Assembly (NCBI GenBank): GCA_002269645.1
Contig: NIVC01000897.1
Span: forward strand, 351,453 to 415,452
DNA length: 64,000 nt
Direction of reading: 5' to 3'
Source: Macrostomum lignano
Lineage: Eukaryota
Part shown: positions 12,701 through 64,000 of the stretch, piece by piece
Layout of the letters: every line of letters starts with the position of its first letter
How positions within the stretch are numbered: position 1 is the first letter of the stretch
Program-made: the position numbers and the translations under genes
Notes under the pieces: model-generated
Seen by the model: the letters and a program-made list of their open reading frames with translations, nothing else
Databases searched by the model: none
Told to the model about the DNA's origin: nothing

Positions 12701-13279
12701 GCCAGGGTTCACACAGAGTTCACACAGAACTCAAGTCTTGCAGTTTAGTATGAATCTAATATGGGAGGCAGAGTGCCAATGGACTCTTAAATCCTATTCT
12801 AAATCACTATATTGGTGAAGCTTTTGTTTGGAAAAAATCATTGTTTGAACATTAGAGACGATTCTGGCTCTCAGCGGGCGGCCTCCTCCGAGCCATGCGC
12901 GGCACAATGGGATCTTCGCTTCGTTGGGCTCTAAATTATATTTTATTTAATGATTGCCGCAACCCCCTAAACATCTCCGAAGAGAAGTCTGCGAGTTGGA
13001 GGGTCGAGCAGCAGGAGCGACTCGCTCGGACTCAACCGATGCGGAACAACTGCCGACAATTGCTGACAAAGCTGATGAGATCTCCTGCGTTTGTTCCGGG
13101 CGCGTGACTTTCAACTTGTCCGATTTTCCCCGATCTGTCTTGAGTATAGCCTCAATGTGCTATACTCAAGGCGGGTCTTGGAGAACTCGGCGCTGCGGGG
13201 GGGGTGGCTGGAAAACCGCCTGCGGTGCTTTGGGAAGGGCTTCTACTGGGACTGTTTGCCATCGCTGTCATAATAGTGG

Positions 13280-13891
<612 letters not shown>

Positions 13892-14591
13892 TTTAGATAC
13901 TACCAGTCCGCTTCTATACTTAGTCTCTTAAATTATCTGTTTTCGCAACAAGCACAAATTAATTTCAAAACTTTCACTGCCATTCTTCAACGCGACAGCT
14001 CCCCGCTAAATGAAATGATGCAACAGTCTAAAATGGACGCCCTCGCCAACACAGGCCGCTGCGGGTAAAAAGCGCTAGCTGGCTCGCCTCTGTTGCTGTG
14101 AGGGGCTGCAATGTTCTCGCATTTCCCCTCAAGGAAGGCGGCTCCAAAGAGCACTGCCGCAATAATTGCGCCCGAGTCGATCTGATCCGCAACATCTCCG
14201 CTCCCTACCTCTCCGCTCTTCATCTTCCCATTTCCAGCGCGCGACATCCCGCAGCGCGGTGGGCGGGGTGGCTTGATCATGCAGTTCCAAGTCGGATCGC
14301 ATTATTTGTATTTGCTTTGATTAGGATTGCTATCATTGAACATTTCCTGTGTTGCCGGGTGCACTTACCCTACAAATTGAAAATGCTTAGAGACCAATCG
14401 ACCTCTAATGATGGGGCTTAACTTTGCATTAAAACAGCTCTCAAATGCCACATTTACTACTCAGGAGTGCCTCGCCAGTAGTAAATGTATTCAATATACG
14501 AACGAAAGCAAAACTAATTAGACTTAACCGTTGTTAAGTGTACCTGCTTTAGCATGGACAATTAAAGTAGAAGCATGCTCAACTCACTGCC

Positions 14592-16450
14592 TCGTGTCTG
14601 TCCTAGTGTCTGTCCTCGTGTCTGTCCTAGTGTCTGTCCTAGTGTCTGTCCTAGTGTCTGTCCTAGTGTCTGTCCTAGTGTCTGTCCTAGTGTCTGTCCT
14701 CGTGTCTGTCCTAGTGTCTGTCCTAGTGTCTGTCCTAGTGTCTGTCCTAGTGTCTGTCCTAGTGTCTGTCCTAGTGTCTGTCCTAGTGTCTGTCCTAGTG
14801 TCTGTCCTAGTGTCTGTCCTAGTGTCTGTCCTAGTGTCTGTCCTAGTGTCTGTCCTCGTGTCTGTCCTAGTGTCTGTCCTCGTGTCTGTCCTAGTGTCTG
14901 TCCTAGTGTCTGTCCTAGTGTCTGTCCTAGTGTCTGTCCTAGTGTCTGTCCTAGTGTCTGTCCTAGTGTCTGTCCTAGTGTCTGTCCTAGTGTCTGTCCT
15001 AGTGTCTGTCCTAGTGTCTGTCCTAGTGTCTGTCCTAGTGTCTGTCCTAGTGTCTGTCCTCGTGTCTGTCCTAGTGTCTGTCCTCGTGTCTGTCCTAGTG
15101 TCTGTCCTAGTGTCTGTCCTAGTGTCTGTCCTAGTGTCTGTCCTAGTGTCTGTCCTAGTGTCTGTCCTAGTGTCTGTCCTAGTGTCTGTCCTCGTGTCTG
15201 TCCTAGTGTCTGTCCTCGTGTCTGTCCTAGTGTCTGTCCTAGTGTCTGTCCTAGTGTCTGTCCTAGTGTCTGTCCTCGTGTCTGTCCTAGTGTCTGTCCT
15301 CGTGTCTGTCCTAGTGTCTGTCCTAGTGTCTGTCCTAGTGTCTGTCCTAGTGTCTGTCCTCGTGTCTGTCCTAGTGTCTGTCCTAGTGTCTGTCCTAGTG
15401 TCTGTCCTCGTGTCTGTCCTAGTGTCTGTCCTAGTGTCTGTCCTCGTGTCTGTCCTAGTGTTTGTCCTCGTGTCTGTCCTAGTGTCTGTCCTAGTGTCTG
15501 TCCTCGTGTCTGTCCTAGTGTCTGTCCTAGTGTCTGTCCTAGTGTTTGTCCTAGTGTCTGTCCTAGTGTCTGTCCTAGTGTCTGTCCTAGTGTTTGTCCT
15601 AGTGTCTGTCCTAGTGTCTGTCCTAGTGTCTGTCCTAGTGTCTGTCCTCGTGTCTGTCCTAGTGTCTGTCCTAGTGTCTGTCCTCGTGTCTGTCCTAGTG
15701 TTTGTCCTAGTGTCTGTCCTCGTGTCTGTCCTAGTGTCTGTCTTAGTGTCTGTACTGGTGTCTGTCCTAGTGTCTGTCTCAGTGTCTGCCTCAGTGTCTG
15801 TCTCAGTATCTGCCTTAGTGTATGTCTTAGTGTCTGTCCTAGTGTCTGTCCTCGTGTCTGTCCTAGTGTCTGTCCTCGTGTCTGTCCTAGTGTCTGTCCT
15901 AGTGTCTGTCCTCGTGTCTGTCCTAGTGTTTGTCCTAGTGTCTGTCCTCGTGTCTGTCCTAGTGTCTGTCTTAGTGTCTGTACTGGTGTCTGTCCTAGTG
16001 TCTGTCTCAGTGTCTGCCTCAGTGTCTGTCTCAGTATCTGCCTTAGTGTTTGTCCTAGTGTCTGTCCTAGTGTTTGTCCTAGTGTCTGTCCTAGTGTCTG
16101 TCCTAGTGTCTGTCCTCGTGTCTGTCCTAGTGTCTGTCCTAGTGTCTGTCCTAGTGTTTGTCCTAGTGTCTGTCCTAGTGTCTGTCCTAGTGTCTGTCCT
16201 AGTGTCTGTCCTAGTGTCTGTCCTAGTGTCTGTCCTAGTGTCTGTCCTAGTGTCTGTCCTCGTGTCTGTCCTAGTGTCTGTCCTAGTGTCTGTCCTCGTG
16301 TCTGTCCTAGTGTTTGTCCTAGTGTCTGTCCTCGTGTCTGTCCTAGTGTCTGTCTTAGTGTCTGTACTGGTGTCTGTCCTAGTGTCTGTCTCAGTGTCTG
16401 CCTCAGTGTCTGTCTCAGTATCTGCCTTAGTGTATGTCTTAGTGTCTATA
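14592..16450. repeat. Minisatellite, 12-bp unit TGTCTGTCCT(A/C)G, with higher-order variant blocks at the right end
   Basis: Read directly. The array resumes after the LTR element. Confidence 0.98.
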
Positions 16451-16463
16451 TTTATGTCCGCCT

Positions 16464-19400
16464 TGTAGTGTGCGTACGCACAGTATGGTACGCCCGGGCA
16501 GTCTGATTGGCTGCGGAGTGGGGTGGGTGCCGCCACCCCAATTCTAACTCCATAATATATAGACTCGTGCCCAGCGCGGCAAGATTTGTAAGAGTTTGGC
16601 TACACAGCAAACACGGCCTCTGACTAAGTTACTACAATGGCGTCGCAAGAACTGAACCTTTAAAAATCATGACTCAGCAAATTTCACTCGCGCCACCCGG
16701 GCCGTTTACAATCGATAGCGACTGCCACTCCACAGCACAGCGCTGGACTGCATGGACTCGTCGCTTCGCCACGTACATCAATGCAGCTGGAATCACCGAC
16801 AAGACTCGAGGGCAGCAGCTGCTGCTGTACGCCGCAGGAGAGGAGCTGCAGGCTGTAGTCGAAGAGAACGAGATCGCCTCTGGAGAGGACTACAGCAGCC
16901 TCGCGAAAAACATCCAGACGTTCTGGGACGGGAAGAATAACATTGTGTTCCTGCGTTTCAAGTTTGAGACCTGCAGACAGCAGCCTGGCGAGCAGATCGA
17001 CCAGTGGTATCAGCGTCTGCGCAAGGCGGCGGAGCCGTGTGAGTTCGGGACCCTCAGAGACTCGCTGATCCGTGACAAAATCGTCGCCTACTGCGAATCT
17101 GAGAGACTCAGGAGAGACTTCTTGCAGACCAACAATATCTCCCTGGCAGATGTGCTCAAAAAGGCGAGGGCGAAAGAAGCCGCGGAGCAGCAGGCCACCG
17201 TGATGGAGAGCGACAGACCAGGGGAACCGCAGCAGCTCGCAGCAGTCAGAAGAGACCAGAAGCCACAGATGCCGCAGACACCAACGCAGCACGTATCGTG
17301 CGATCGCTGCGGCAGGCCAGGGCACCCCACGTGCACCGCAGCGCAGGGCAAGAGCTGCAGAAAGTGCGGGAAGCCGGGCCACTTCGCGCGAGCCTGCAGG
17401 TCCAAGCAGGGCGCCCCGCAGAGCGGCGCCGACGCCGTCGCAACGCTGCAAGGCGAGACCAGCTACCAGAAGGTGGACCACCCGGACTCCGGCGTGTTCG
17501 AGGTCGATCAGGGTGAGCAGTCGGCCCACACAATAGCCGAGATCAACGGCTCCAGACTGTCGGTGTTGATTGACAGCGGTGCGGCTCGAAATGTGATCAA
17601 CCGGGCCACGTTCGAGAGCCTGAGACAGCGGCCGCACCTGCAGACCACCTCGGACAGGCTGTTCGCGTACGGGTCGGACAGGCCGATGCAGCTGCTGGGC
17701 AAGGCGGCGATGGACGTCCGCATTTTCGGCCGGCAGGCAGTCGCCACGTTCCACGTCGTCGAAGGGAGAGGCATCACCATCATCGGCAGGCAGACGGCCA
17801 CTCAGATGGACATCCTGCGGGTCGGGCCACCACCGACAGCCGGACAGCGGGTGCTGCAGGTCGCTGAAGCGGAGGCGGCGGTCGATGGCCTTCTCAGCGG
17901 CACGAGATCCAGCGGAGTGCCTCAAGGACACGTCGAGGACATCGGCAGGGTGCTGCGCAAGCACGCCAGCGTGTTCAGCGGAATCGGCTGCTTCACCGGG
18001 CCGCCTGCCGACATCCACCTCACCGACAGCGCCCGCCCGGTCTGCCATGCGCCTTCGAAGGTGCCGATCCACCTGGCAGACGCGGTGGACAAGGAACTGC
18101 AGTTGTTAGAGCAGCTCGGGATCATTGAGCCCGTCGACGGCCCGGCGCCGTGGGTCGCGCGGATGGTCGTCGTGCCCAAGAAGGAGCCGGGCGAGGTGCG
18201 CATCACGCAGGACCTCCGCGATGTCAACCGCTTTGTCATCCGCGAGCGACACCAGATTCCGACTTTCGAGGAGGTGACCGGGGACATGGCCGGCAGCACA
18301 GTGTTCTCAGAGCTGGACATCGCGAAGGCGTTCTACCAGGTGCCTGTCGCCGAGAAATGCCGCAACCTGCTAACATTCTCGACGCCTCGCGGGCTTCGCC
18401 GTCTCACCCGGCTGTGCATGGGCCTGTCCACCTCCCAGGAGATCCTGCAGAATGTGATGAGTCGAGTGCTGGCAGGCCTGCCCAACGTCAAATGGATCCA
18501 CGACGACGTGGTCGTGTTCGGCCGCACGATGGCGGAGCACAACAGCAGCCTCGAGGCATGTCTGGCCCGCCTGGCGCAGCATGGCATCACGCTGAACGCT
18601 CGGAAATGCCGACTGGCGCGCAGCAGCATCGAGTTCATGGAATGCGGCTCACGGCGGAAGGGGTCCAGGCCACGGAGAGCAAGGTCGCCGCCGTTCAAGA
18701 CTTCAAGGAGCCCGAGTCGATTGGGCAGCTTCGCTCATTCCTGGGCCTCGTGAACTACCTCGCCGTGTTCACGCCACAGCTGGCCAAGGTGGCGGAGCCG
18801 CTGCGGCGCCTGACCAGGAAGACCGTCGACTGGCAATGGGGCGCCGACCAGGCCAGCGCCTTTGAGCAGCTGAAGCGCAGCATCGCGGAGCCGACAACGC
18901 TGGCTTTTTACGACAAGCGGCTACACACGCAGCTGATTGTGGACGCGGGGCCGACCGGACTGGGCGCCATCCTGGCGCAGGTGCAGCGCGACGGCAGCTC
19001 GAGGCCGGTCGCATACGCCAGCCGGACCCTCTCCGATGTCGAGCGGCGATATTCGCAGACCGAGAAAGAGGCACTCGCCGTGAAGTTCGGCTGCCTGAAG
19101 TTTGAGTACTACCTGCATGGATCGCCCCAGTTCACAGTGGTCTCTGATCACAAGCCGCTGACGGCCATGTTCGCGCCTGGGTCGCGGCCGCCTCCACGAG
19201 TCGAGCGAATGGCGCTCAGGATCCAGCACCTAGTGTTCAAGGTCGAGTACCAGCCGGGAGCCTCCAATGCTGCAGATGTACTCAGCAGGCAGCCCCTAAG
19301 CGAGCACGACGGAAGTTTTGGCGAGCAGCGGAGGGAGGCCTACATCAACGAGGTGGCGCAGGCGGCTGTGCCGATGGCGCTGACACTCCAAGACATACGC

Positions 19401-28374: not shown

Positions 28375-29072
28375 CAAGGACGACTTAAGTAGAAGGACGG
28401 GAAACCTCGTTTCTTAGAAAATTTTTGAAGGCACTTTTTCCCGAAAAAATACACTACGGAGATAGGAAATTTTCATTTTTTCAGCACAAAAATTGCTATT
28501 ACTTTTGATAGGAGGCAGATCCAGTGCTCATCTTTTGATATGTTGTGCCTTTTTTATTGCTCTATCGATATTTATAAAGCTTTTCGTTCAGAAAATTAGG
28601 ATTATATGTCAATTTTTTATTCTACGTACATTTCCTGTATCTGAAAATCACAAAAATGCATGACACAGCTCCAATATTTGCTTTTATGAACCTGTTTTAT
28701 CATCTCTGTTACGAATATTTGCTAAACAGTCAGTTAAGAATGATAAAATAGACTTCTAAAACCAAAGAGCCGAGCCGTGGCATTCTAATGTATTTCAATC
28801 ACAAGACACGTGAAAATATACGGAGAATAAAAAATTTACATAGAATCCTAATTTTCTGAACTAAAAGCTTTATAAATATCGATAGAGCAATAAAAAAGGC
28901 ACAACATATCAAAAGATGAGCACTGGATCTGCCTCCTATCAAGAGTAATAGCAATTTTTGTGCTGAAAAAATGAAAATTTCCTATCTCCGTAGTGTATTT
29001 TTTCGGGAAAAAGTGCCTTCAAAAATTTTCTAAGAGACGAGGTTTCCCGTCCTTCTACTTAAGTCGTCCTTG
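28375..29072. mobile_element. 698-bp MITE with ~230-bp TIRs and 8-bp TSD
   Basis: TIR starts CAAGGACGACTTAAGTAGAAGGACGGG. TSD GAATTACA at 28367-28374 and 29073-29080. No coding capacity. An 8-bp TSD fits the hAT, P or Merlin superfamilies. Confidence 0.92.
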
Positions 29073-29507: not shown

Positions 29508-30209
29508 CGAAGGACGACTACTCAACTAAAGGACGGAAAACACTAAGTTTCTTAGAATATGTTTAGGAGGCAGGTTTTTGCCGAAAAAATACACTACGGA
29601 GATAGGAACTTTTCATTTCTTTCAGCACAAAAGTCGTTATTGCTTTCGATAGGAGGCAAACACTGCAATGTTCAGCTTTTGATGTGTTGTGCCTTTTTTA
29701 TGGCTCTTTTCGATATTCATAAAGCTTTTCGTTCAGAAAATTAGGATGTTATGTAATTTTTTATTTTACGTACAATTGTACATCTCCTGTGCCTAAAAAA
29801 ATTTAGAATAGCAGGGCTCGGCTTTTATTATTTATTAATCTATTTTATTATCCTTAGCTGACTGTGTAACAATTAAACAATGTGACAGAGATGATAAAAA
29901 TAAATTCATAAAACCAATGAGGAGCTGCGCCATCCATTGTAAGTACAGGGAATGTACTTAGAAAAAATAGCAGAATCCTAATATTCTGAACGAAAAGCTT
30001 TATGAATATCGAATAGAGCTATAAGAAAGGCACAACACACACACCAAAAGCTGAACATTGGGTGCCTCTTATCGAAAGCAATATAACAATTTTTGTGCTG
30101 AAAGAAGTGAAAACTTCCTATCTCCGTAGTGTATTTTTCGGCGAAAACCTGCCTCCTAAACATTTTCTAAGAAACTTAGTTTTCCGTCCTTTTAGTTGAG
30201 CAGTCCTCG
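29508..30209. mobile_element. Diverged second MITE of the same family, internal region in the opposite orientation
   Basis: Long imperfect TIRs (AAAATACACTACGGAGATAGGAA... / ...TTCCTATCTCCGTAGTGTATTTT). Internal segment is the reverse complement of that in copy 1. TSD not clear. Confidence 0.85.
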
Positions 30210-31490
30210 GATAATACATGTAGATGTTTCGGGTCGGCAGCGTGACAAACCAAAACACATAAAAGTAAAAAGAACATTACGGCAAAAAAATAAAGAAATC
30301 TAGAAAATTAATAAAAACAGGCATAAACCGCAAAACTTAAATTGAAAAAATACCTGACCGGTAACATTTTCATTTTGTTTTAAATAACCTCCTATGTAAA
30401 CTAACTTCGTGTGTTACATTTGACACGCTCCCGTGGAATTATTTTCTAATCTTATACATAAAAATCATCTCTCAACTTAATCGCGTACCGTACACTAAAA
30501 TTATATTCGATCTGAAATAAAAAACACATGGTAGGTATCCTTAAATGGTTGGGGTTGGAAGAGAGCGTGGGTCGTAGTCTAGTATACAACCAATTATTTC
30601 TGAAATCATTTTTATAGACCGATACCATCTAACAAAATATAAGATTTTTAGGAAATGTGAACAACTAGGAATGGATATATTTTTTATATTTGTCTAGGGT
30701 TTGTCTATCCGTCTTTATAATATAAGTTATATTATTCTTTCCCATAATTAGTCCAAACTGTCTTAGCTTCAGATGTTAAGTTAAAAGAATATACTCGTAC
30801 TAGGCTGTTAGAAAACTTGAATAATTGCTTTGTATGCCCAACTAAAAATCCTTCTTTGCTATCACACGCAATAATTTATCCGTAATTTGTAAAAATAGTA
30901 AAAAAATCTATTAATTGTTAGAAAATGTTTTTGATCTTATTCTTTATGCATATGTGCTTTTGAAGCTGAAGACATTTACATTTTCATTCAAGTTCTAGAA
31001 AGTTAAAAAAAATTCCAATTTGCAAATTTGCACCTTTTAATTTAAATTAGCTACTTTTAGTGTCTGATTGACCTCCAACTTCAACAATCGATGTTGAAAA
31101 GAAGAAATACAGTAAAAAAACAGTAAAACATTTATTACTGTTTAAGACTTGATTGTGCATTGTGCCTATTAGTTATTTAGAAAATAGTTAGAAAATAGCA
31201 TAATAGTTATTTAGAAAAATGCTTTTAAAAGGTTACAAACTAAAATAAGTTTAAAAATAAGACTAAACGTGACAGTCTCTCTTAAACGAAAAAATCGATT
31301 TATTGTTTACTTGATTCTTTACTTTGTTTAGTTGTTTTGTACTAAATGTGAGGATGCATACGCTCAAATATTCCCTTACAGGAATTTAATTTACATTAAT
31401 CATCGGCACCAAACATGACGCCAGCTGGTCTCTGCTGATCAGCGAGGAGGACTGGGTCCCGGTACGACCGCGACCAGGACGCCCAGACGA

Positions 31491-46373
<14,883 letters not shown>

Positions 46374-46425: not shown

Positions 46426-47188
46426 AGTAGAAGGCATGAGGGGGCTTCTGGGACAAAATTTTTCACCTCCTCCATAATCCACCTAAATCCATCCATATTA
46501 TCCCTGACAGAATCAGAAAAAAAGGGGGGTCGCACCTGCTAACAAAACGTCTTCCATAATCCACCTAAATCCTTCCATATTATCCCTGACAGAATAAGAA
46601 AAAAAGGGGGGTCGCACCCGCTCACAAAACGTCCTCCATAATCCCATTAAATCTATCTATATTATCCCCGACAGAATCTTGAAAAAGGGGAGGGGTTGCA
46701 CTTGATCCGAAAACTTTAATCCCATTAAATCCATCCATATTATGACTGACAGAATATGGGAATATGGGTCCACTAACACCTGTTATGTTCACTGACACTG
46801 ACATAATCCACTAACATCTTCGAAACAATAAGAAAATAATCTGAATTCTTCTCCCCACATTCAATTTGCAACGTGCTACCAGATCCCTAAGACTTTAAAT
46901 CATCAGCGCAGGGTCCTTACCCTTTGAAAAAAATTAAATTTTCAATAAAAATGTTTCCAGTTGTCTCTCCAGGTTCTTATTATACTCAGCCTAATCCATT
47001 GTACAAATCCAAGTACCAATGCAAACTTGAATGCAGCGAATACATGAGAAAATATTGGCCCAACGTTGATATCAATGTCCCTAATATTAATCTAGCTCTC
47101 CAAAGACTTTGGTTTCATAAGTATGGAGTAACCTATGTAAAAGATTACGACAGCTACTATAACTTTGCAGAAATCATTAGGCAATTGT
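46426..47188 (+). repeat. Left terminal inverted repeat (~760 bp) with ~82-bp subterminal tandem units
   Basis: 46454-47188 is the reverse complement of 63297-64000, with scattered indels. The unit CCATAATCCACCTAAATCC...CTGACAGAAT...GGGGTCGCACC repeats 3-4 times. Confidence 0.93.
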
Positions 47189-47190
47189 AG
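46951..47190 (+). CDS. 79-aa Tyr-rich orphan ORF inside the left TIR
   Basis: AAAAATG start as in other element genes. A counterpart with indels lies in the right TIR (63529-63295, minus). Confidence 0.5.
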   Translation: MFPVVSPGSYYTQPNPLYKSKYQCKLECSEYMRKYWPNVDINVPNINLALQRLWFHKYGVTYVKDYDSYYNFAEIIRQL

Positions 47191-47540: not shown

Positions 47541-47621
47541 CTTCTAGAATTCGAATTCTAGAAAATTCTAGAACAAAAAGAGAATCCGTGGATTCCCGAG
47601 CCCACACCAATGGTATATATA
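47541..47621 (+). promoter_or_regulatory. Heat-shock element, CCAAT and TATA upstream of ORF 47739
   Basis: aTTCt-aGAAa-aTTCt-aGAAc (47555-47574) is four perfect alternating nGAAn pentamers, with cTTCt-aGAAt at 47541-47550. CCAAT at 47607. TATATATA at 47614. Confidence 0.7.
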
Positions 47622-47738
47622 CAGCCGATTCACACCGCCCCTCGCCTCACCCTGCCTGCTCCGCCTCGCCTCGCCCCGCCTCAACTCGCTGAGCCAGCAA
47701 CTTCTTATTTTTGACTAGCTTAATCTCTGTATCTTGCC

Positions 47739-48362
47739 ATGGATGAAGAAATGCAAGCAGGCAACAACGTTTACATCCAAAATCTGGAGAACTTCATCAA
47801 GGCGGTTTTTTCTAGTAAAGATCTCGACAACTGGAATCTTTGGGCCGATAAATACAATGCAATTGCTCGGTCACCAATCGTGAAGCCAACTATCAATGGA
47901 CGGCTAGCGAAAACTACCGACAAGCAATTACAAATCGGCAAGGCTCTGGACGAGTTGCGCACGGCCTATAAAACCAACAGTGAGCCTGTGCCAGTGCATT
48001 CTCTAGAAGAATTTATGCAGGGAACATTTACGATCGACGCAGTGCTTGTACAGATTGCCAACCTTCATAAGCTAGTTGAACGGTATGGCAAGCATGGCTT
48101 TGCAAACGGCCTACAGCTCGGCAGGATCTTTCTGAGAATGGAGCGGGTTCTCAGTAAGGAACAGTTCAACGAGCTGAAAAGACGTGCACCGTTCACCAGC
48201 CAGTGGACCAACTTTCTGATGAAATTGGCTGACCAAGCTGAGAAATATCCGGTGCTACAAAGATCTGCAATGTCCCTGCACAAGCTGAAGTCGATGATTG
48301 CATACTTGCCAGAGGCCCTTGCGATGCTGCAACAGGAAGTGGACGAAGGCTTGTTGTTTTGA
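47739..48362 (+). CDS. 207-aa orphan helical protein, possibly DNA-binding
   Basis: Intact ORF with GCCATGG context. The C-terminal half (GLQLGRIFLRMERVLSKEQF...FTSQWTNFLMKLA) loosely resembles DUF3102-like helical domains by eye. Confidence 0.75.
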   Translation: MDEEMQAGNNVYIQNLENFIKAVFSSKDLDNWNLWADKYNAIARSPIVKPTINGRLAKTTDKQLQIGKALDELRTAYKTNSEPVPVHSLEEFMQGTFTIDAVLVQIANLHKLVERYGKHGFANGLQLGRIFLRMERVLSKEQFNELKRRAPFTSQWTNFLMKLADQAEKYPVLQRSAMSLHKLKSMIAYLPEALAMLQQEVDEGLLF

Positions 48363-48457: not shown

Positions 48458-49767
48458 CCAACCTCAAATTTTGAAACCACTGGTTTCATTTTCTGGGGTG
48501 GTTGTTTAACAAGTATGCCATTTTGATTGCCCACCTCAAATTTTGAAACCACTGGTTGCAAATTTTGAAATTTGCTTGGGACAGTGTAGAAAAATGTTTC
48601 TGCTGGAAGCAGTGCAGAACTCAGATCACCCACCTCAAAATTTGAAACCAACGGTTTCATTTTCTGAGGTGGCTGTTTGACTAGGAGAGCGTAGAAGAAA
48701 ACGGAGGGATCACCCAGAAGGTTGTACTTTGTAGAGTGTAGACGTAAGTTTTAAAAATAAAACCCTTGGGAGAGCGTAGAAGAGATCACCCACCTCAAAA
48801 TTTGAAACCAGTGGTTTCATTTTCTGAGGTGGCTGTTTGACTAAGCTCGGGAGAGCGTAGAAGAAAACGGAGCGGCTAGTTGTGGAGGCTAGAAAAAGAA
48901 AGACCCCCTCCCGCCCGGATCAACCCTCAACCCTCTGCAATTCTCTTTTTTGGCTTTGGCGCTGCACTGCACAGAAGTGAATTGCAGAGGGAGGGTGGGT
49001 GGAGAGAGAAGAGGGGACTTGTGGCGGAATGCGCGGACTGCATGCAGTGAGTGGCAGGGCGGGTGAGAACTGGATAGCGCAGCAGTGTAGACCCACCTCA
49101 AAATTTGAAACCAGCGGTTTCATTTTCTGAGGTGGCTGTTTGACTAAGCTCGGGAGAGCGTAGAGCTAGTTGCGGAGGCTAGAGAAGCAGTGCAGAACTC
49201 AGATCACCCACCTCAAAATTTGAAACCAGTGGTTTCATTTTCTGAGGTGGCGCGGCGCCCCTGTGCAAGAGAGCCCAGTGCTCTGGCCCGGACTGTTGGG
49301 GAAGGGAAAGGGAGAGGAGCTCAAGGGGAAGGAGATTTCAGTACAACGGGAGAGTCAAAATTCCCAGGCGCTTCTCTACCCCCAGCGCGAGATCGCTAGT
49401 GTTATGTTTGACTAAAAATAGAATGAGCTCGGGAGAGCGTAGAGCTAGTTGCGGAGGCTAGAGAAGCAGTGCAGAACTCAGATCACCCACCTCAAAATTT
49501 GAAACCAGCGGTTTCATTTTCTGAGGTGGCTGTTTGACTAGGAGAGCTTAGAGAGAGCTAGTTGCGAAGAGAGGCACCCAGAGGACAGGCTTGGAATGAG
49601 AGGCGGTGGGGCAAGACGGGTGAGAGAAGGGCTGGCCTGAGAGTTGGTCTACCCAGACCCCCCGGCCCTCTCTGGGGGTTGGGAGGCTAGAAAAAGAAAG
49701 ACACAAGCGTCTTTAGAGGATCACCCACCTCAAAATTTGAAACCAGCGGTTTCATTTTCTGAGGTGG
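48458..49767. repeat. Array of 8 copies of a 43-bp imperfect palindrome separated by variable spacers
   Basis: CCACCTCAAAATTTGAAACC-AGY-GGTTTCATTTTCTGAGGTGG at ~48458, 48531 (partial), 48630, 48790, 49093, 49208, 49487, 49725. Confidence 0.92.
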
Positions 49768-52686: not shown

Positions 52687-55600
52687 ATGCCAAAAGCTAA
52701 TCCAGCAAGAGATTTAGTCAACAAATATTTTTCAAAAGGCGTCTCATTTCAAGACAAAAGTAATTCACTAAGAGAAGCATGCAAACAAAAGTTCAACACC
52801 GACCCCGGTCACCTGGGAAGCTATGAAAAACAGTTGGAAATCATCAATCAATTAGAATCAAACCAGTATGCGCCTATAAAAAATTCTGCAAAGGAACACC
52901 AAGAGAGGAGTCGCAACTTAGTTAACAAATATGAAACTCTCACTGGTGAAAAAGCAAAGTACCCACAAAATAAGCAGGAACAAGAGAAATTAGAGCAATT
53001 AATCCATTTAAAAGAGTCGGAGCTTGCCACTGAAGAGATTAATTTTGCACAGACGAAGTTTACAGAACATTACATAGAGTACACAATCCCAATTAACGGC
53101 ACCAACGGTACCACCGCAAATATCTACGACTATAAAGACAGCATCCAATCAGTTGTTGATCACACACTCAAAACACGCAAGACCTTTAAACTACAGATAT
53201 CATTCAAGATTGCGTTTTATATGCCTGCGAAACCCACTGAGCATCTCGAGTATTACATGACAACAAAGGCAAAGCCATTCACCCCAACAGACACACTGGA
53301 TCCTTTCCTTCAAGATGTCAATAAGAAAATTGAAGCGTTTACATCCAGAGGTTCCGGATGGGTCGTGGGAGGGATTCAAAGAGCGACTGTCATGGTCATG
53401 AAATATGACCCACTTAAAGCCTCCTCTTATATAGAGCTCCCGCATAAGCTAGCCGGTAAAAAAGCTTGCATAAATGTTAAAAATAAAGACAATTGCTGTG
53501 CTCTATGGGCAGTTCTTTCTGCACTTTTTAGTGTACCTCACCACCCCGAAAGAACCTCAAATTATCAAAATTATTTCAACTACTATCTCATTGAATGCGA
53601 AAAGAAGGGAATCAGGTTTGACAAAGGAGGCTTGGCGATCTCTCAGATCCCAAAGCTAGAAGAAGTGTTTAATAACAAAATTAGAATCACAGTCTTTGAG
53701 TGGAGTGAAAAAACTGAGAAAGTTCAACCGGTCAGATGTAGCAAAGACGTTTTAGATCCGAGGGGAAAAGGCGGACTGAAGTGGATCTTCTAGTGATTGG
53801 TAATTTACTAGAGGAGGCTCACTATGTTTGGATTAAAGATCTTTCAAGACTCATACACAAGCAGTTGAATAATCATCACGAGGCTGTTGCCATCTGCCGC
53901 TTGTGCCTTAAGCATTACAGTGGACCTGAACGCTTTGAAAAACTAGCAGAGCATGAATTATCATGCGAGGATCACCCGACAAACTGCTCTCTTCCTTCAG
54001 CTGAAGAGAAGTATCTCCGGTTTAAGAACTATCACAAGATGGAGAAGCTCCCATTTGTTGTATATGCTGATTTCGAATGCTCAATCGTGCCAGAAACTCA
54101 AAAACAAACTCCAACTCAAAAACAAACTCCAACTCAAAAACAAACTCAAACTCAAAAACATGTCCCCAATTCAGTAGCATATGCCTTTATTAATACAAAA
54201 GGACTTGTTGAGTATAATTATTTCTTTGGAGAGCAGTGTGTGGAGCAGTTTATTGCCAGAATGTTAGAGTTGCAAAAATGATTAGCACCCTTCAACCTGT
54301 TCCAATAATGATGACTGAGGAGGATGAAAGCAATTTCCTATCAGCAACTCATTGCCACATCTGCAGGAAACATTTAACTTGCACTAATATTAAAAACCCC
54401 ACCGTTAGGGACCACTGCCACTATACTGGGAAATTTAGAGGTGCAGCGCATAACACCTGTAATCTAAAGCTAAAATCGAACATTCATGATCTAACGATAT
54501 TTTGTCACAACGCAAAGAACTATGACATGCATTTAATAGTTGAAAAAATCGGCATGATTCCAGACATACACCTTGATTGCATCGCAGAGAACAAGGAGAA
54601 GTTTAAGTGTGTTGATATTAAACAGGATAATTCGGGTAAAGGTAAAATAAGACTGAAGGATTCATATCAATTTCTAGCTGCCAGTCTAGACGAACTAAGC
54701 AAGAATCTAAAAGATGAACAATGTACATATACAAAGATGTTTGCAAGTAAAATTAACAACACTGATGAATCATTTAAACTCCTGAGAACCAAAGGCTTCT
54801 ACCCCTATGAAAATATTACTGGGTATCACGTATTTGAAGAAGGTTTACCACCACAAGAAAGTTCTTTTCAAAGCTAACAGACTCTGGAATCTCTGACAAA
54901 GACTATGAGCACGCGAAGCATGTCTATAATTACTTTAATTGTCAAAACTTCTTCCAGTATCACCTGCTTTACCTCTACACAGATGTGTTTCTGCTGGCCG
55001 ATGTGTTTGAAACCTTCAGATCACCTGGTACACAGCATATGGCCTCGATCCAGCACATTATGTGTCTCTGCCTGCCACTAGCTGGGAATCTTTGCTTAAA
55101 ATGAAATGGGATCAAGATCCAGATTGGTACATTGAACTTCTTACAGACATTGACATGTACAATTTTGTCGAATCGTCAAAGCGAGGGGGAATCTCAATTT
55201 GCACATAGATATGCAAAAGCAAACAATCCCTACATTGAATCTTACAATAAGGAGCAGCCCTCAAACTACATTACTTACTTGGACGCTAATAATCTCTACG
55301 GGTGGGCGATGAGTCAAGATCTTCCAGTTAGAGATTTTCGATGGTACCCTCATCAGAATTCAAACGGGACTTTTCATTGGCTGCCATTTATGAGGTTGAT
55401 GTTTACATTCCACCAGAGCTTCACGACTATTTCTCTGACTTTCCACCCTTCCCAGAGAACATCAAGTGCCCGAAAATAATCGAAACTCCCAATGATAATA
55501 ATGGAACTTGGCACCTGTCAGGAACAGAAAAAGAACATACAGAGAAACTAACACAGAATCTAAACAACAAGACACGTTACAAAATCCATTACAAACTGCT

Positions 55601-56559
55601 TCAGTATTTTATCTCACTTGGTTGCAGGGTCACCAAGTTCACCGGGCTCTTACATTTACAGAGGAAGCGTGGATGAAACCCTACATTGATAAGAACACCC
55701 AGTTTAGGACCAAAGCAACCAACGACTTTGACAAGAACCTCTTTAAGTTGGCCAACAACTCTGTCTATGGCAAGACTCTTGAGAATGAGCGGAAAAGAAC
55801 AAACCTGAAACTTGTTACCTCATCAGAGCCTGATGTTATTCAGGCAAATATGTCAAAGCCAACATTCAAAGAACTCCATATCTTTAATAGCTACTTAGGT
55901 GTGATCATATTTTACAAAACCAAGGTGACGCTGCGCAAGCCGATCTATACAGGTGTCACTGTTCTCGACGAATCAAAACGTCTGATGTACCAGTTCTTCT
56001 ATGGCATGAAGCAGCAGTACAAGGATAAAATGAAACTCTTGTACACTGACACAGACAGTTTTATTATGGACATTCAAACAGAAGACATTTATCAGGACAT
56101 GCTGCAGCAAAAAGATTTGTTTGACTTGTCTGAGTATGATGAATCTTTCAGGACACAGAATGGCGATCAAGTGTTTGACGCCACTAACAAGAAAGTGATT
56201 GGGAAAATGAAGGACGAGATTGCTGGTGACATAATCACTGAATTCATTGGGTTGAGAGCAAAGTCCTATTTTATAAAATGTGAGTCGTCAGACCCAATCA
56301 AAAAATCAAAGGGAATTCCGAAACGTGTGTTAGGAAGGAAATTAATGAAGCTGAATACAGAGACGCCTTGAATTGCAACAAAAAGACATCACATGAGTTC
56401 TCAAAGCTACAATCTAAAAACCATATTATTCACACAATTCAGCAAAAGAAGATTGGACTGTCAGGTGCAGATAACAAGAGATTCATTTTTGATGACAATA
56501 TCAACAGTCTACCGTTCGGGCATTGGAGGTTAGGTTTAGGAGGTGGATATTGGGTTTAG
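52687..56559 (+). CDS. pPolB: Protein-primed family B DNA polymerase, broken by several frameshifts
   Basis: GSGW/SYIELP N-terminal region, ExoI YADFE, endonuclease VII-like RDHCHYTGKFRGAAHNTCN, ExoII HNAKNYD, ExoIII YLYTDV..LADVFE, motif A YLDANNLYGWAM, motif B KLANNSVYGKT, motif C LYTDTDS, C-terminal DNKRFI..LPFGH. Confidence 0.95.
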
Positions 56560-58517: not shown

Positions 58518-59313
58518 TTAAATTACAGTTCTTTTTTCTTGTTGATCATGACAAACTGATAGGGTGTTCCACTTGTCATAGCAAAGATTAACGAATTCCT
58601 CTTGTGAAATCTTTCTGCTTGAGTTTTTTGTTGGATTTATAAAATAGGCAGGCGCAATGACCTCATTGTAAAATCTTTTTAGCCTATCCTGTGGAATGGT
58701 TGGAAACAGGAGAATCAGATTGCAGTTCCCACGAATTGTTTTGTTCGGGAGCTCGAACCAGTTCTGTGCAATGTAAATTACATTACAATTGTTATGTCGC
58801 CCTCTTGTAAAATAGTTTTCTATCTGCTTCTGTGGGCCTGTCATACAATCATCAAAGACGATCAAATGCTTTCTCCCTTTTCTAGCTCATCTGGTTGGGG
58901 TAGAAGTTTGGTCTTTGGATCAGCCTGTGGATCTCCATAGGTGAACACTTTAATGTTCTGCCATTTTTCATTGTCTTTGAGGTGCTTTGCATATTCAGCA
59001 GCTACAATTTCTGGGTTACTGGGAAGGCACATTTGGTTATTAAAACATTGAATAATGTCCTCTTTGTTCAGTTTGTTTTGCAATCCAGAAATCAGCATTT
59101 TATACTCATCTTGATACAGTGTGGGAGAGTAGATGTGCAGAGTGTCATAGTCGATAAAGCCAGGTCTAAGAAGCATGTTAAAGACTCTGAATGTTTTACC
59201 TGAACCTGATGAACCAACAACAATGCATCTGAAGTGACTCGGGATTGACTCGTGATGAGAAAACTTAATCTGATTACGCGTCCAGTGAGGATTGAAGTCG
59301 TTTGAAAGTCCAT
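58518..59313 (-). CDS. A32/FtsK-like DNA packaging ATPase (frameshifted)
   Basis: Walker A CIVVGSSGSGKT (read in the alternative frame at ~59200-59240), Walker B IVFDD, and RGRHNNCNVIYIAQ. Confidence 0.93.
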
Positions 59314-59521
59314 TTTTTCTATGATTGAAAAAAAATTAAATAATAAATCATTTAGAAGATGTGTCATTTCGGGACTTGAATGTGTCGTTTTGGGACTTAG
59401 ATGTGTCATTTTGGGACTTAGATGTGTCATTTCAGGACTAGTCTTATACTCTTACATGTCTTGTACCCTTGAAAGTACCTTTAGTCAAATTTGAAACCAC
59501 TTCCTTTTTTAATGCTAGCTC

Positions 59522-61124: not shown

Positions 61125-62406
61125 ATGAACGACCCACTGACACCAGTTTTCTACAAAATTAACAAGCCTATTTTGAGTGATGATAGCACAATCAAAGCGA
61201 CTCAGGTAAGAGTTCCAGTCAGGAAAATCAGAATGAAACTAATCTTGGTCCTGGTCAAACACTGACATTTACATACAATGGATGTTCGTCTTTGGTTAGT
61301 GTGCACAGTCTTAAGAGCGGCTTCCATATGACATTTCAATTCAAGACAAAGGTGGTGCGGATGCGGCTCGTGCTAACGTTGACAAGCATGATGCGGATGT
61401 GGCTCTGATCAGTAACTTTTGGGCGTACATGTTCAAGGAGTTTAGTGTATCGAATGGGAGCACTGAGTTGGAGCGAATCGCCAACTTTGGAATTGTCTAT
61501 GACGCTCATTGTTTGATCGAGAATCCTGATTTTATTCAGTTGGGAAGTGGTGCGGGTTTATTGCAGATGAAAAAGAAGGAGATATCAATGACAGTGGCTA
61601 TAAAAAGAGGAAGAAGAGATACAACTATGCATTGCAAGGTGCTGATGATGCTGCTAAAAACCCGCTGTATCGGTCTGTTGATGTATTTGTACCACTGAGA
61701 TTCATGAGTGGATTCTGTAATACATTTAATCGACTGACTAGTAACTTTAGCTACACCTTTAGGATGACTAGAGATGATCGCAGTAGAGTGTTGTGGACTG
61801 GGGCGGACCACACAAGGATGGAGGTGAAGCTAACCGGAATCGAGCTGTATTTGGAAGTCATTGAGCAAAGACTGCACTAAAAGCAGATTATCTTAAGGCA
61901 ATAGAGAAGGACATTGATGTTGCATACACGGCCTACATGTGTCGAGATGAGCGAAACGAAACTAGAACAAACATCTGCATTAAAGAGGGATCATGCAGCA
62001 ATCCAAGGTATATCATTATTAATATGAGAAACCCAAATAGCATTATACGCTACATGCATGGAGACGTGCGGTCCATTCAGCATGAAATCAGTGATAATCT
62101 TTACCCTGCACTGCCACAAAATGGAGATTTCAGTCAGAACAAGATTAGCAAATTTATAGCGAGTTGGTCGACTTGGCTGTGAAAGAGAACAATGGAATTG
62201 CTATCACTGCTCTTCAATATGGAACTCTATATCCGATGTTTGGCGCTGATGTGTCTGCCAGACAAATGCCTACTGATAACAGCCCTGTGAATATCGTGAC
62301 TAACATTGAGAGGACTGTCGCAACACCCGTGGACCTGTACATTATCTATGCATTTGAGAGGAAGGTGAAGCTTAACATGATCAACAATTCATCCAGTAAA
62401 GTTTAA
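61125..62406 (+). CDS. Double jelly-roll major capsid protein (PY/hexon-like), multiple frameshifts
   Basis: ~1.28 kb. Motifs VFVPLRFMSGF..TFRMTRDD, VKLTGIELYL, NPRYIII and LYPMFGADVSARQ match Polinton MCP patterns. Lies directly upstream of the penton gene. Confidence 0.75.
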
Positions 62407-62429
62407 ATATTTTTTTGTGGGTGAAAAAA

Positions 62430-63290
62430 ATGGAAGCTATAGCCGAAAGACTAAACAATATTATTTCGCACTCCAAGGAGAGCATTCCTATTACAATAAC
62501 TGGGCGATTAATGACTCAAACGGGATATTTGTTCAAAAATTAGAGCAGGCGATTAGCCTGGATCCAGGTGCTAATTACCATGTCTATCTTAACGACTTCA
62601 CTGGTTGGTCAAACGTTCCCAATGTGACGGCAGCAAATAATAAGTTTTATTACAAATGGAAAGGTGCAGCAGCAGAACCTGTGGTATTCCCTGTGAGCAC
62701 GCAAAGTGTGGATACCTACAATTACTTTCTAGAAAACGTCTTTACTAAAAGAGGCCATTTTGAGACACCTGATATGAGTAAGCCAGAGAAGAAACTGTTC
62801 CCTGTTAAACTAACCTATGATCTCACTGTAATGAGAGTGGTCATGCAAGTTCACAAAGATGCGGAGGTTGAGTTTAAAGATGACACTTGGTATAGGGAAT
62901 TGGGATTCGTGAAGAAAGTTTATAAGCAGAATCCACAGCGCGGACTGTCACTCAAGCATCGGGGCCGTTAGCATGGCCCGGGAAAGTGTACGCGGTTTGT
63001 TCTTAGCACCCAATATAGCAGACATTGTAAAGGGTTTGAATATTCTAATCAGAACTAATCTCAGTCTTGATTGGGTATTTAAGGGAAAGCGAACTAATAT
63101 TTTGTACAACATCTCCAACTCTGTAGCTGGAGGACAGATGGTGGTAGAGAAACCAAATCCAGTGAAAAGAGTTGTATTGAGTAATAAGGAGATTCACGAG
63201 ATTGTGCTTCAGTTTGAGACTGAAGATGGGATGGGCGTTGATTTTAATGGGGAAGAGTTTGTATTGACGTTAATCATTGAGAGAATGTGA
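62430..63290 (+). CDS. Single jelly-roll minor capsid protein (penton/PX), frameshifted
   Basis: ISLDP..YHVYL..WSNVPNVTAANNKFYY, ELGF and EKPNPV..IHEIVLQFETEDG..VDFNGEEF..L are typical Polinton penton motifs. Confidence 0.82.
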
Positions 63291-63296
63291 GAAATC

Positions 63297-64000
63297 ACAA
63301 TTGCCTAATGATTTCTGCAAAGTTATATAGCTGTCGTAATCTTTTACTAGGTTACTCCATACTTATGAAACCATGTCTTTGGAGAGCTAGATTAATATTA
63401 GGGACATTGATATCAACGTCGGGCCAATATTTTCTCATGTATTCGCTGCATTCAAGTTTGCATGGTACTTACTCTTGTAATGGATTAGGCCTGCGTATAA
63501 TAAGAACCTGGAGAGACAACTGGAAACATTTTATTGAGAATTTATTATTTTTTTTCAAAGGGTAAGGACCCTGCGCTGATGATTTAAAGTCTTAGGGATC
63601 TGGTAGCACGTTGCAATTGAATGTGGGGAGAAGAATTCAGATTATTTTCTTGATTGTTCGAAGATGTTATGGATTATGTCAGTGTCAGTGAACATAACAG
63701 GTGTTGTGACCCATATTCCATATTCTGTCAGTCATAATATGGATGGATTTAATGGATTAAAGTTTTCGGATCAAGTGCCTCCCCTTTCAAGATTCTGTCG
63801 GGATAATATAGATGATTTAATGGGATTATGGAGGACGTTTTGTGAGCGGGTGCGACCCCCTTTTTTTCTATTCTGTCAGGGATAATATGGAGGATTTAGG
63901 TGGATTATGGAAGACGTTTTAGCAGTGCGACCCCTTTTTTCTGATTCTGTCAGGATAATATGGATGGATTTATGGATTATGGAGGAGGTGAAAAATTTTG
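63297..64000 (-). repeat. Right terminal inverted repeat (truncated by the window end)
   Basis: Reverse complement of 46454-47188. The window ends ~28 bp short of the expected terminus. Confidence 0.93.

Follow-up and report, generated by a model that had tools for sequence, protein, structure and literature searches.

The stretch of DNA analysed here, referred to as the window, covers 64 kb of the flatworm Macrostomum lignano (NIVC01000897.1:351453-415452) and contains a Polinton bounded by terminal inverted repeats (TIRs). Just inside the left TIR lies ORF207 (47739-48362, forward strand), an intact open reading frame (ORF) of 207 amino acids, which is preceded by a promoter with a heat-shock element (HSE), the motif bound by host heat-shock factor (HSF), and followed by an array of palindromes. 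The argument developed below is that promoter, gene and array may form an exchangeable accessory cassette, in which a probable DNA-binding regulator would be produced upon heat stress and act through its own array.

The promoter is built around a perfect HSE of four alternating nGAAn units, nTTCnnGAAnnTTCnnGAAn (47555-47574, forward strand), which is followed after a gap of 39 bp by a TATA box, TATATATA (47614-47621, forward strand; TATATAAA in other copies), and then by a CCTCG-rich leader and a GCCATGG start. A first-pass annotation of the sequence had described the four pentamers, the TATA box, the leader, the start and the open 207-residue frame, and all of these are where it placed them. 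It had also noted two more pentamers upstream. These do exist, as a TTC/GAA pair (47541-47550, forward strand) included in a 22-bp palindrome (47542-47563), but they lie 14 bp out of register with the main HSE, have four of their six core positions gapped in 7 of 33 haplotypes and are dispensable. The CCAAT pentamer (47607-47611, forward strand) is likewise genuine, but its reading as a promoter box was rejected: it ends 2 bp before the TATA box, varies more than either the HSE core or the TATA box, and is probably not functional. Motifs for STAT and BCL6 have a spacing of N3/N4, and a STAT/BCL6 reading of the block was discarded because the spacing here is N2.

What is it that sets this short block apart from its surroundings? 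Within the window the four-unit HSE is the only run of three or more units, and runs of at least four are expected 0.00-0.01 times per element (100 Markov simulations at each of orders 1-3). The exact 18-mer of the HSE is found 103 times in the genome versus 4 times for a reversed control; 39 of the 103 represent this promoter, and others seen among 15 fetched loci are set in Copia-like, Helitron-like or different surroundings. With a 17-nt sequence just after the TATA box as anchor, promoter copies were located at 54 genomic places; the block comprises four perfect units at 41 of these, three units at 3 and two at 3, and has been lost at 7. Conservation of the HSE in other copies, which the first-pass annotation had named as a check, is borne out in the 41 copies with four perfect units, and 44 of the 54 retain the three or more contiguous alternating units associated with HSF-bound promoters. 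When the 7 block-less copies are dropped, leaving 47 places and 33 haplotypes, non-majority letters make up on average 1.5% of the 12 GAA/TTC columns, 9.8% of those at n positions and 11% of the flanks, with 1% for the TATA box and 5.5% for CCAAT. Variants common to at least two haplotypes affect 1 of the 12 core columns as against 70 of 124 others, the flank in this count including columns near the gene junction (Fisher p=0.0013, an indicative value as the haplotypes are related and the assembly is redundant).

A comparison with the host's own heat-shock genes, serving as a positive control, gives a similar picture. Among 20 hsp20 loci, 15 have a four-unit HSE at -176 to -195 and a TATA box at -113 to -129, positions matched in the element by an HSE at -184 and a TATA box at -125, so that the HSE stands near upstream of the TATA box as in host hsp genes. 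The host hsp20 promoters also have a second, proximal HSE, which is absent from the element. Capture of the promoter from hsp20 was rejected, since alignment with the 20 loci recovers only the HSE and one 10-mer (hsp70 and hsp90 promoters lying outside this comparison). Taken on its sequence, the HSE-TATA unit looks selected and functional.

ORF207 itself is predicted to be all-helical with an acidic C-terminal end, and acidic, hydrophobic C-terminal tails are found in most members of its family. Ratios of nonsynonymous to synonymous substitution (dN/dS) of 0.08-0.58 in 15 of 15 pairwise comparisons indicate purifying selection. The gene had been called an orphan, which is true with respect to Pfam and PHROGs, where it has no match; in the genome, however, 63 of 75 candidates match it, some of them from lineages that share 38%, 31% and 30% identity with it, and three further relatives were found outside the genome. 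One relative, P0003, matches the C-terminal part of the L063 ORF of this genome (L numbers denote genomic loci); P0001, P0002, P0003 and P0005 were retained as relatives, and P0004 and P0006 were dropped as repeat-protein artefacts. No homologue emerged from a word-index search with the ORF207 protein and two alignments, from a search of viral_contigs with two single proteins or from Foldseek of PDB and viral libraries, and a PDB sequence search gave only noise (E>0.01).

The C-terminal domain (amino acids 97-207; 48027-48359, forward strand) is predicted to be ParB/Spo0J/KorB-like, with the helices of a helix-turn-helix (HTH) placed at residues 140-149 and 154-169. Its closest folds are the DNA-binding domains of ParB, Spo0J, KorB and Noc, with 89-95 of 111 residues aligned and weak structural support. 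No family member, and nothing in the genome, matches the PF11300 (DUF3102) or ParB HTH family profiles; one family member matches another HTH family, below cut-off. A full-length VIA search was swamped by the N-terminal helices, and a homodimer prediction score of 0.02 is not evidence either way. In ParABS systems ParB has a CTPase domain and works with a ParA or other motor partner. The N-terminal half of ORF207 is predicted to be all-helical rather than a CTPase domain, and no Pfam for such a domain or partner was found among 26 ORFs scanned. ORF207 is probably a DNA-binding regulator.

Behind the gene (48472-49754) stand eight palindromes of the form TGAAACCA-N-TGGTTTCA, with 0-1 mismatch and set within longer imperfect inverted repeats, which represent a candidate cognate array. 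Elsewhere in the window no further site is present even at three mismatches (0.49 expected), and no candidate site occurs at the TIRs, at the cassette's own promoter or at the replication or capsid promoters. Across 764 Mb there are 42 perfect sites. Of these, 39 fall within arrays that follow an ORF207 copy (one of them at the very start of a contig, so that the gene itself lies off it), 1 adjoins a Polinton TIR accompanied by a family fragment, and the remaining 2 belong to a single unrelated locus that is duplicated. In other cassettes the stop codon is followed by palindromes of a different kind: a ATACTGCAGTAT type in L075 and L061 (imperfect in L073), TTC(C/T)AACGCGTT(G/A)GAA in L089 and L131, TCCTGG/TCTGG types in L078, L084, L091, L121 and L126, and TTTACGAAGCTTCGTAAA in L137. 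A half-site-like TCAAATTTGAAACCA is also seen near 59487, including in a copy carrying another cassette.

For L089/L131 (domains 17% identical), L073/L075 (32%) and the window/L063 (38%), the palindrome region is the sole DNA that still aligns, and in these pairs the predicted recognition helices pair in the same way as the palindromes, for example FTSQWTNFLMK and FTPQWIGFLMK. In a comparison of 12 cassettes, the similarity of half-sites rises with the identity of the proteins (rho 0.47, p=0.003, a statistic that ignores descent), with a value of 0.33 among the 60 pairs under 40% identity. The palindromes of related cassettes thus appear to track the predicted recognition helix. Several points weigh against building too much upon this: the palindrome motifs were picked by eye, the correlation is uncorrected for descent, individually significant palindromes are found in 6 of 13 HTH cassettes and in 0 of 2 RING cassettes, and the array of L078 and L084 is common to both by apparent recombination. 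In a separate count, 7 of the 8 tandem-repeat clusters with arms of at least 6 (out of 49 clusters) lie in the Polinton slot, and none of the window's 11 host repeats has such arms. In the array of L091 (3270-3450; also in L028, L109 and L111), three 3-unit HSE-like runs overlap the palindrome, and it is possible that HSF and the element protein compete there.

The cassette occupies a variable slot whose inner border is a PLA2-like gene (PF08398; 50545-51243, reverse strand). Six or more family genes of distinct types (L089, L078, L084, L091, L121 and L126) stand behind one and the same promoter, and an upstream HSE is found at 0 of 23 loci of divergent lineages. Of these HSE-less lineages, L061, L062 and L067 occupy a backbone about 95% identical to this one, and L071 and L075 a different Polinton family. 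Of 40 PLA2-anchored copies listed (282 candidates), 20 that are not on the list of known promoters were surveyed; 8 have an empty slot, 7 a family gene, 3 a RING gene and 1 a broken other gene, and 1 is truncated, the RING assignment being Pfam-tested for L140 only. In 5 of these 20 an HSE of at least three units, belonging to two further promoter sequences, precedes a slot gene facing the TIR. Besides ORF207, the L078, L089, L131, L137 and L144 types are HSE-bearing, and the L061, L119, L142 and L140 types are HSE-less. The slot is thus exchangeable, the same backbone accommodating other HTH or RING genes, with or without an HSE, or nothing. Because surveyed slots may be empty, HSE-less or HSE-bearing, and because divergent loci are without it, the HSE is a recurrent, optional feature of the slot and not of the gene family or of the element. 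The GCCATGG start had been taken to mark a separate, host-style class of gene; other element genes do start in A-rich contexts, as was claimed, but sibling genes in the same slot also have A-rich starts, and the distinction falls.

Some further observations concern the slot and its occupants. RING genes lie in it at L140:930-1562, L141 and L144:3560-3900, that of L144 being intron-split and behind a four-unit HSE of a second promoter type common to L131. At position 1501 of L098 and L102 an HSE and TATA box like those of this second type lie beside a degraded Polinton integrase of another family. The motif TGTAGTTG-N-CAACTACA was rejected as a cassette operator, as it marks the inner TIR edge (L170-L174); in the L117, L119, L125 lineage it is multiplied in place of the HSE upstream of the TATA box, possibly a swap of activating signal. 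In L073 (1051-9531) two inverted copies of the 38% paralogue flank transposase-like ORFs, a layout which suggests that an element other than a Polinton may also carry the cassette or be delimited by it.

Such a regulator-and-array cassette is apparently undescribed, and the function we infer for it is as follows. Heat is established to activate HSF, which would bind the four-unit HSE and induce ORF207, a step that is quite likely. ORF207 would then bind the TGAAACCA-N-TGGTTTCA palindromes downstream, which is reasonably likely. The array-bound protein would most plausibly serve as an enhancer for the nearby divergent PLA2 and integrase starts. Acidic, hydrophobic tails are read as activating, and because most members have acidic C-terminal ends and the array is about 1.3 kb from these starts, activation in cis is given about an even chance, if the array is bound, over repression or tethering. 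The whole chain, an exchangeable accessory cassette in which an HSF-induced, predicted HTH protein works from its own array as an enhancer-bound activator of neighbouring element genes, is the preferred reading, though a tentative one. The cassette would then probably be a conditional, stress-responsive booster for the copies that carry it.

The strongest alternative accepts a heat-induced protein and its cognate array and proposes that the bound complex represses, insulates or tethers, as a device for self-recognition, like prophage immunity or partition, by which read-through would be limited, or copies of the same specificity excluded or marked. Lambdoid immunity regions combine similar backbones with differing specificities, and several palindrome specificities do occur here on backbones of about 90-95% identity; the ParB/Spo0J/KorB/Noc folds also suit this proposal, as does the placing of the array, which has an inward-facing heat promoter on one side and the integrase/polymerase block on the other. 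However, an autoregulated repressor would be expected to have a site in its own promoter, and neither that promoter nor the TIR has one; the missing CTPase domain, with a helical N-terminus predicted instead, and the acidic tails of most members also speak against it, leaving it rather unlikely. A quite unlikely alternative is that the HSE promoter works but expresses any cargo in the slot, with the repeats being by-products of strand-displacement replication or hairpins of the 3' untranslated region, unbound by ORF207. The sharing of one core promoter between different family genes, the RING gene behind another HSE, and the abundance of tandem repeats in the genome, one case lying behind a RING gene, would all be accommodated, but not the retention of palindrome cores between cassettes whose other DNA no longer aligns, nor the concentration of long-armed clusters in the Polinton slot.

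The first-pass annotation had gone further and seen in ORF207 an immediate-early regulator that could wake the provirus. That ORF207 is a regulator, and a DNA-binding one, is probable, and a master stress switch required for reactivation would agree with this, with the location at the element end, the selected HSE and the action of HSF1 in reactivating the HIV (human immunodeficiency virus) long terminal repeat (LTR) and in expression of EBNA1 of Epstein-Barr virus (EBV) (PMC9157408). Such a switch is nevertheless very unlikely, because sister copies are without the cassette and no candidate site stands at the core promoters, sites being confined to the gene's own array; 8 of the 20 copies sampled have nothing in the slot and others have a slot gene without an HSE, the HSE is missing at 23 of 23 divergent-paralogue loci, core frames of this copy are broken as assembled, and the protein-primed DNA polymerase B (pPolB), ATPase and PLA2 genes are without a strong response at 2 h in the accessible data of PMC12801592. 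Equally improbable is a motif unresponsive to HSF in vivo, either silenced or with its TTCTAGAA palindromes acting as operators for an element-encoded HTH protein: two HSE-bearing Copia families of M. lignano are uninduced (PMC12801592, in part), planarian Polintons are silenced by PIWI (PMC8532177, in part) and the L091-type array itself holds HSE-like runs, but the four units, the tolerance at n positions and the TATA spacing match host hsp20 promoters.

The assignment of the surrounding element, already called a Polinton in the first-pass annotation, stands. It is at least 17.5 kb long and, because it combines an rve integrase, pPolB, PLA2, a mu/pX-like core protein, an A32-like ATPase and TIRs, it is classed as a Polinton. 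The left TIR (46426-47190, forward strand) is long and starts 5'-AG, as in Polintons, and the right TIR (63297-64000, reverse strand) is clipped by the contig end, the 6-bp target-site duplication therefore being unreadable; both TIR boundaries are approximate. The retroviral-type integrase (PF00665; 51064-52101, forward strand) is an open frame scoring above the Pfam cut-off, and the core protein with its adenovirus mu/pX-like motif (PF05829; 52118-52495, forward strand) was also found by Pfam. The pPolB region (52687-56371, forward strand) is in about eight reading-frame segments as assembled, one matching PF03175 just under cut-off (E=1e-5), and the A32-like packaging ATPase (58518-59335, reverse strand) is in two, with PF04665 at E=0.002, under cut-off. 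Putative major and minor capsid genes (61127-63290, forward strand), in several frame segments, are placed by position, and protease and capsids alike were assigned by motif or position, Pfam giving no match. The broken polymerase, ATPase, protease and putative capsid frames of this copy reflect decay or long-read indel error, the two not being separable here.

The insertion point lies about 50 bp inside the intron that follows exons (44471-46373) of a host gene with TOG/HEAT repeats, CLASP/TOGARAM-like, and the HSE promoter is on the same strand as this gene. Polinton copies nested in other Polintons are frequent (L005, L006, L009, L012, L028), a TIR abutting polymerase or capsid sequence. 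The window also has short tandem repeats upstream of the ATPase gene (59340-59440), long AT-rich inverted repeats with 259-nt arms at 97% that resemble miniature inverted-repeat transposable elements (28375-29072 and 29539-30218), and a very long low-complexity tandem array with open frames (13155-16506).

How far does published work on heat in this animal bear on the locus? According to the accessible parts of PMC12801592, four HSE-bearing LTR families of M. lignano (Mlig-id115 Mag, id36/id55 CsRN1 and id38) are induced more than 250-fold by heat, mutation of the HSE abolishes the LTR response, and the two uninduced Copia families have a single HSE each. Its 2-h heat-shock table has 1,120 rows up and 1,913 down. 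One cluster with pPolB and endonuclease VII is weakly up (log2 fold change 2.8, baseMean 4.4), one pPolB cluster is down (-1.6), and in the part of the table available no row bears a PLA2-like, a poxvirus ATPase or an adenovirus core annotation. Some induced clusters are listed with no annotation and, like the RING and HTH rows, with no sequence, so none can be assigned to ORF207; 10 copies or paralogues were looked up by exact match without yielding a gene name, so that none is tied to the published table. In its accessible text neither that paper nor its preprint mentions Polinton or Maverick. Contigs from four unlabelled runs guessed to be RNA cover only the DNA downstream of the TATA box (X4 and X14, from 47731 and 47668) or the compared stretch in full (X1 and X3); as contigs reveal neither start sites nor transcript levels, they were not used as evidence.

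Known triggers of Polinton-related elements are, in the sources partly available, giant-virus infections of protists, and literature listings describe none for animal Polintons; titles and listings, with subscription papers largely outside the search, report no HSE or HTH-array cassette in Polintons. The locus is thus a concrete candidate trigger, testable with public heat-shock RNA-seq (3'-end reads at 37 versus 20 degrees, E-MTAB-14939, named in PMC12801592) and M. lignano transgenesis. If the preferred reading were true, the hijacking of HSF, known from retrotransposons and Helitrons, would reach DNA proviruses as well, and in the linked HTH-palindrome cassettes an animal genome would offer a naturally occurring collection of protein-DNA pairs whose specificities vary together. 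A broader proposal, which is rather doubtful, is that animal Polintons carry a swappable, phage-like control region of HSF-triggered promoter, ParB/KorB-type HTH gene and own operator array, with specificities diversified on one backbone such that heat selectively turns on matching subfamilies; were this true, an animal Polinton would for the first time have a defined induction signal and a defined control circuit.

The capture of HSEs by transposons is already known, and the Polinton would be a new element class for a known strategy. The LTR elements of PMC12801592, in its accessible text, share the host, canonical HSEs upstream of a TATA box in a mobile element and repeated acquisition, but there the HSE drives the genomic RNA of the element and induction was measured, whereas here it would drive an optional accessory gene of a Polinton, a DNA virus-like element. 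ONSEN, an Arabidopsis Copia element, and Helitron1_CE of C. elegans also use HSEs for host HSF (as cited in PMC12801592, in part), but are of other element classes and without a regulator-plus-array cassette. Beside these, four-unit HSEs were seen at position 1501 of L096, L097 and L100, in Copia-like LTRs that may belong to the HSE-bearing Copia families already published. L095 and L103 likewise have one at about 1501, flanked on either side by TATA-like boxes. Its surroundings there resemble a Helitron, judged by eye from a PIF1-type helicase and an RPA-like ORF, and it could be the flatworm equivalent of Helitron1_CE.

With respect to the regulator, the predicted helical HTH domain (89-95 of 111 residues) and the repeated palindromes beside its gene recall ParB, Spo0J, KorB and Noc with their palindromic parS or operator sites, and DUF3102. 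EBNA1 is a DNA-binding protein with its own repeat array. As at EBV Qp, from which EBNA1 is expressed, and at the HIV LTR, host HSF would here act on an HSE in a latent virus; those viruses are unrelated, and HSF action has been shown by experiment there and is predicted here (PMC9157408). Finally, the accessible part of PMC4535591 describes baculovirus hr arrays of 3-8 repeats, each with a palindrome, that serve as enhancers together with IE1. These hrs are dispersed and IE1 is essential, unlike the single, gene-linked and optional array of the Polinton, and no homology is claimed; it is nevertheless this pairing of an early viral DNA-binding protein with palindrome arrays acting as an enhancer that provides the working analogy for the preferred reading of ORF207.
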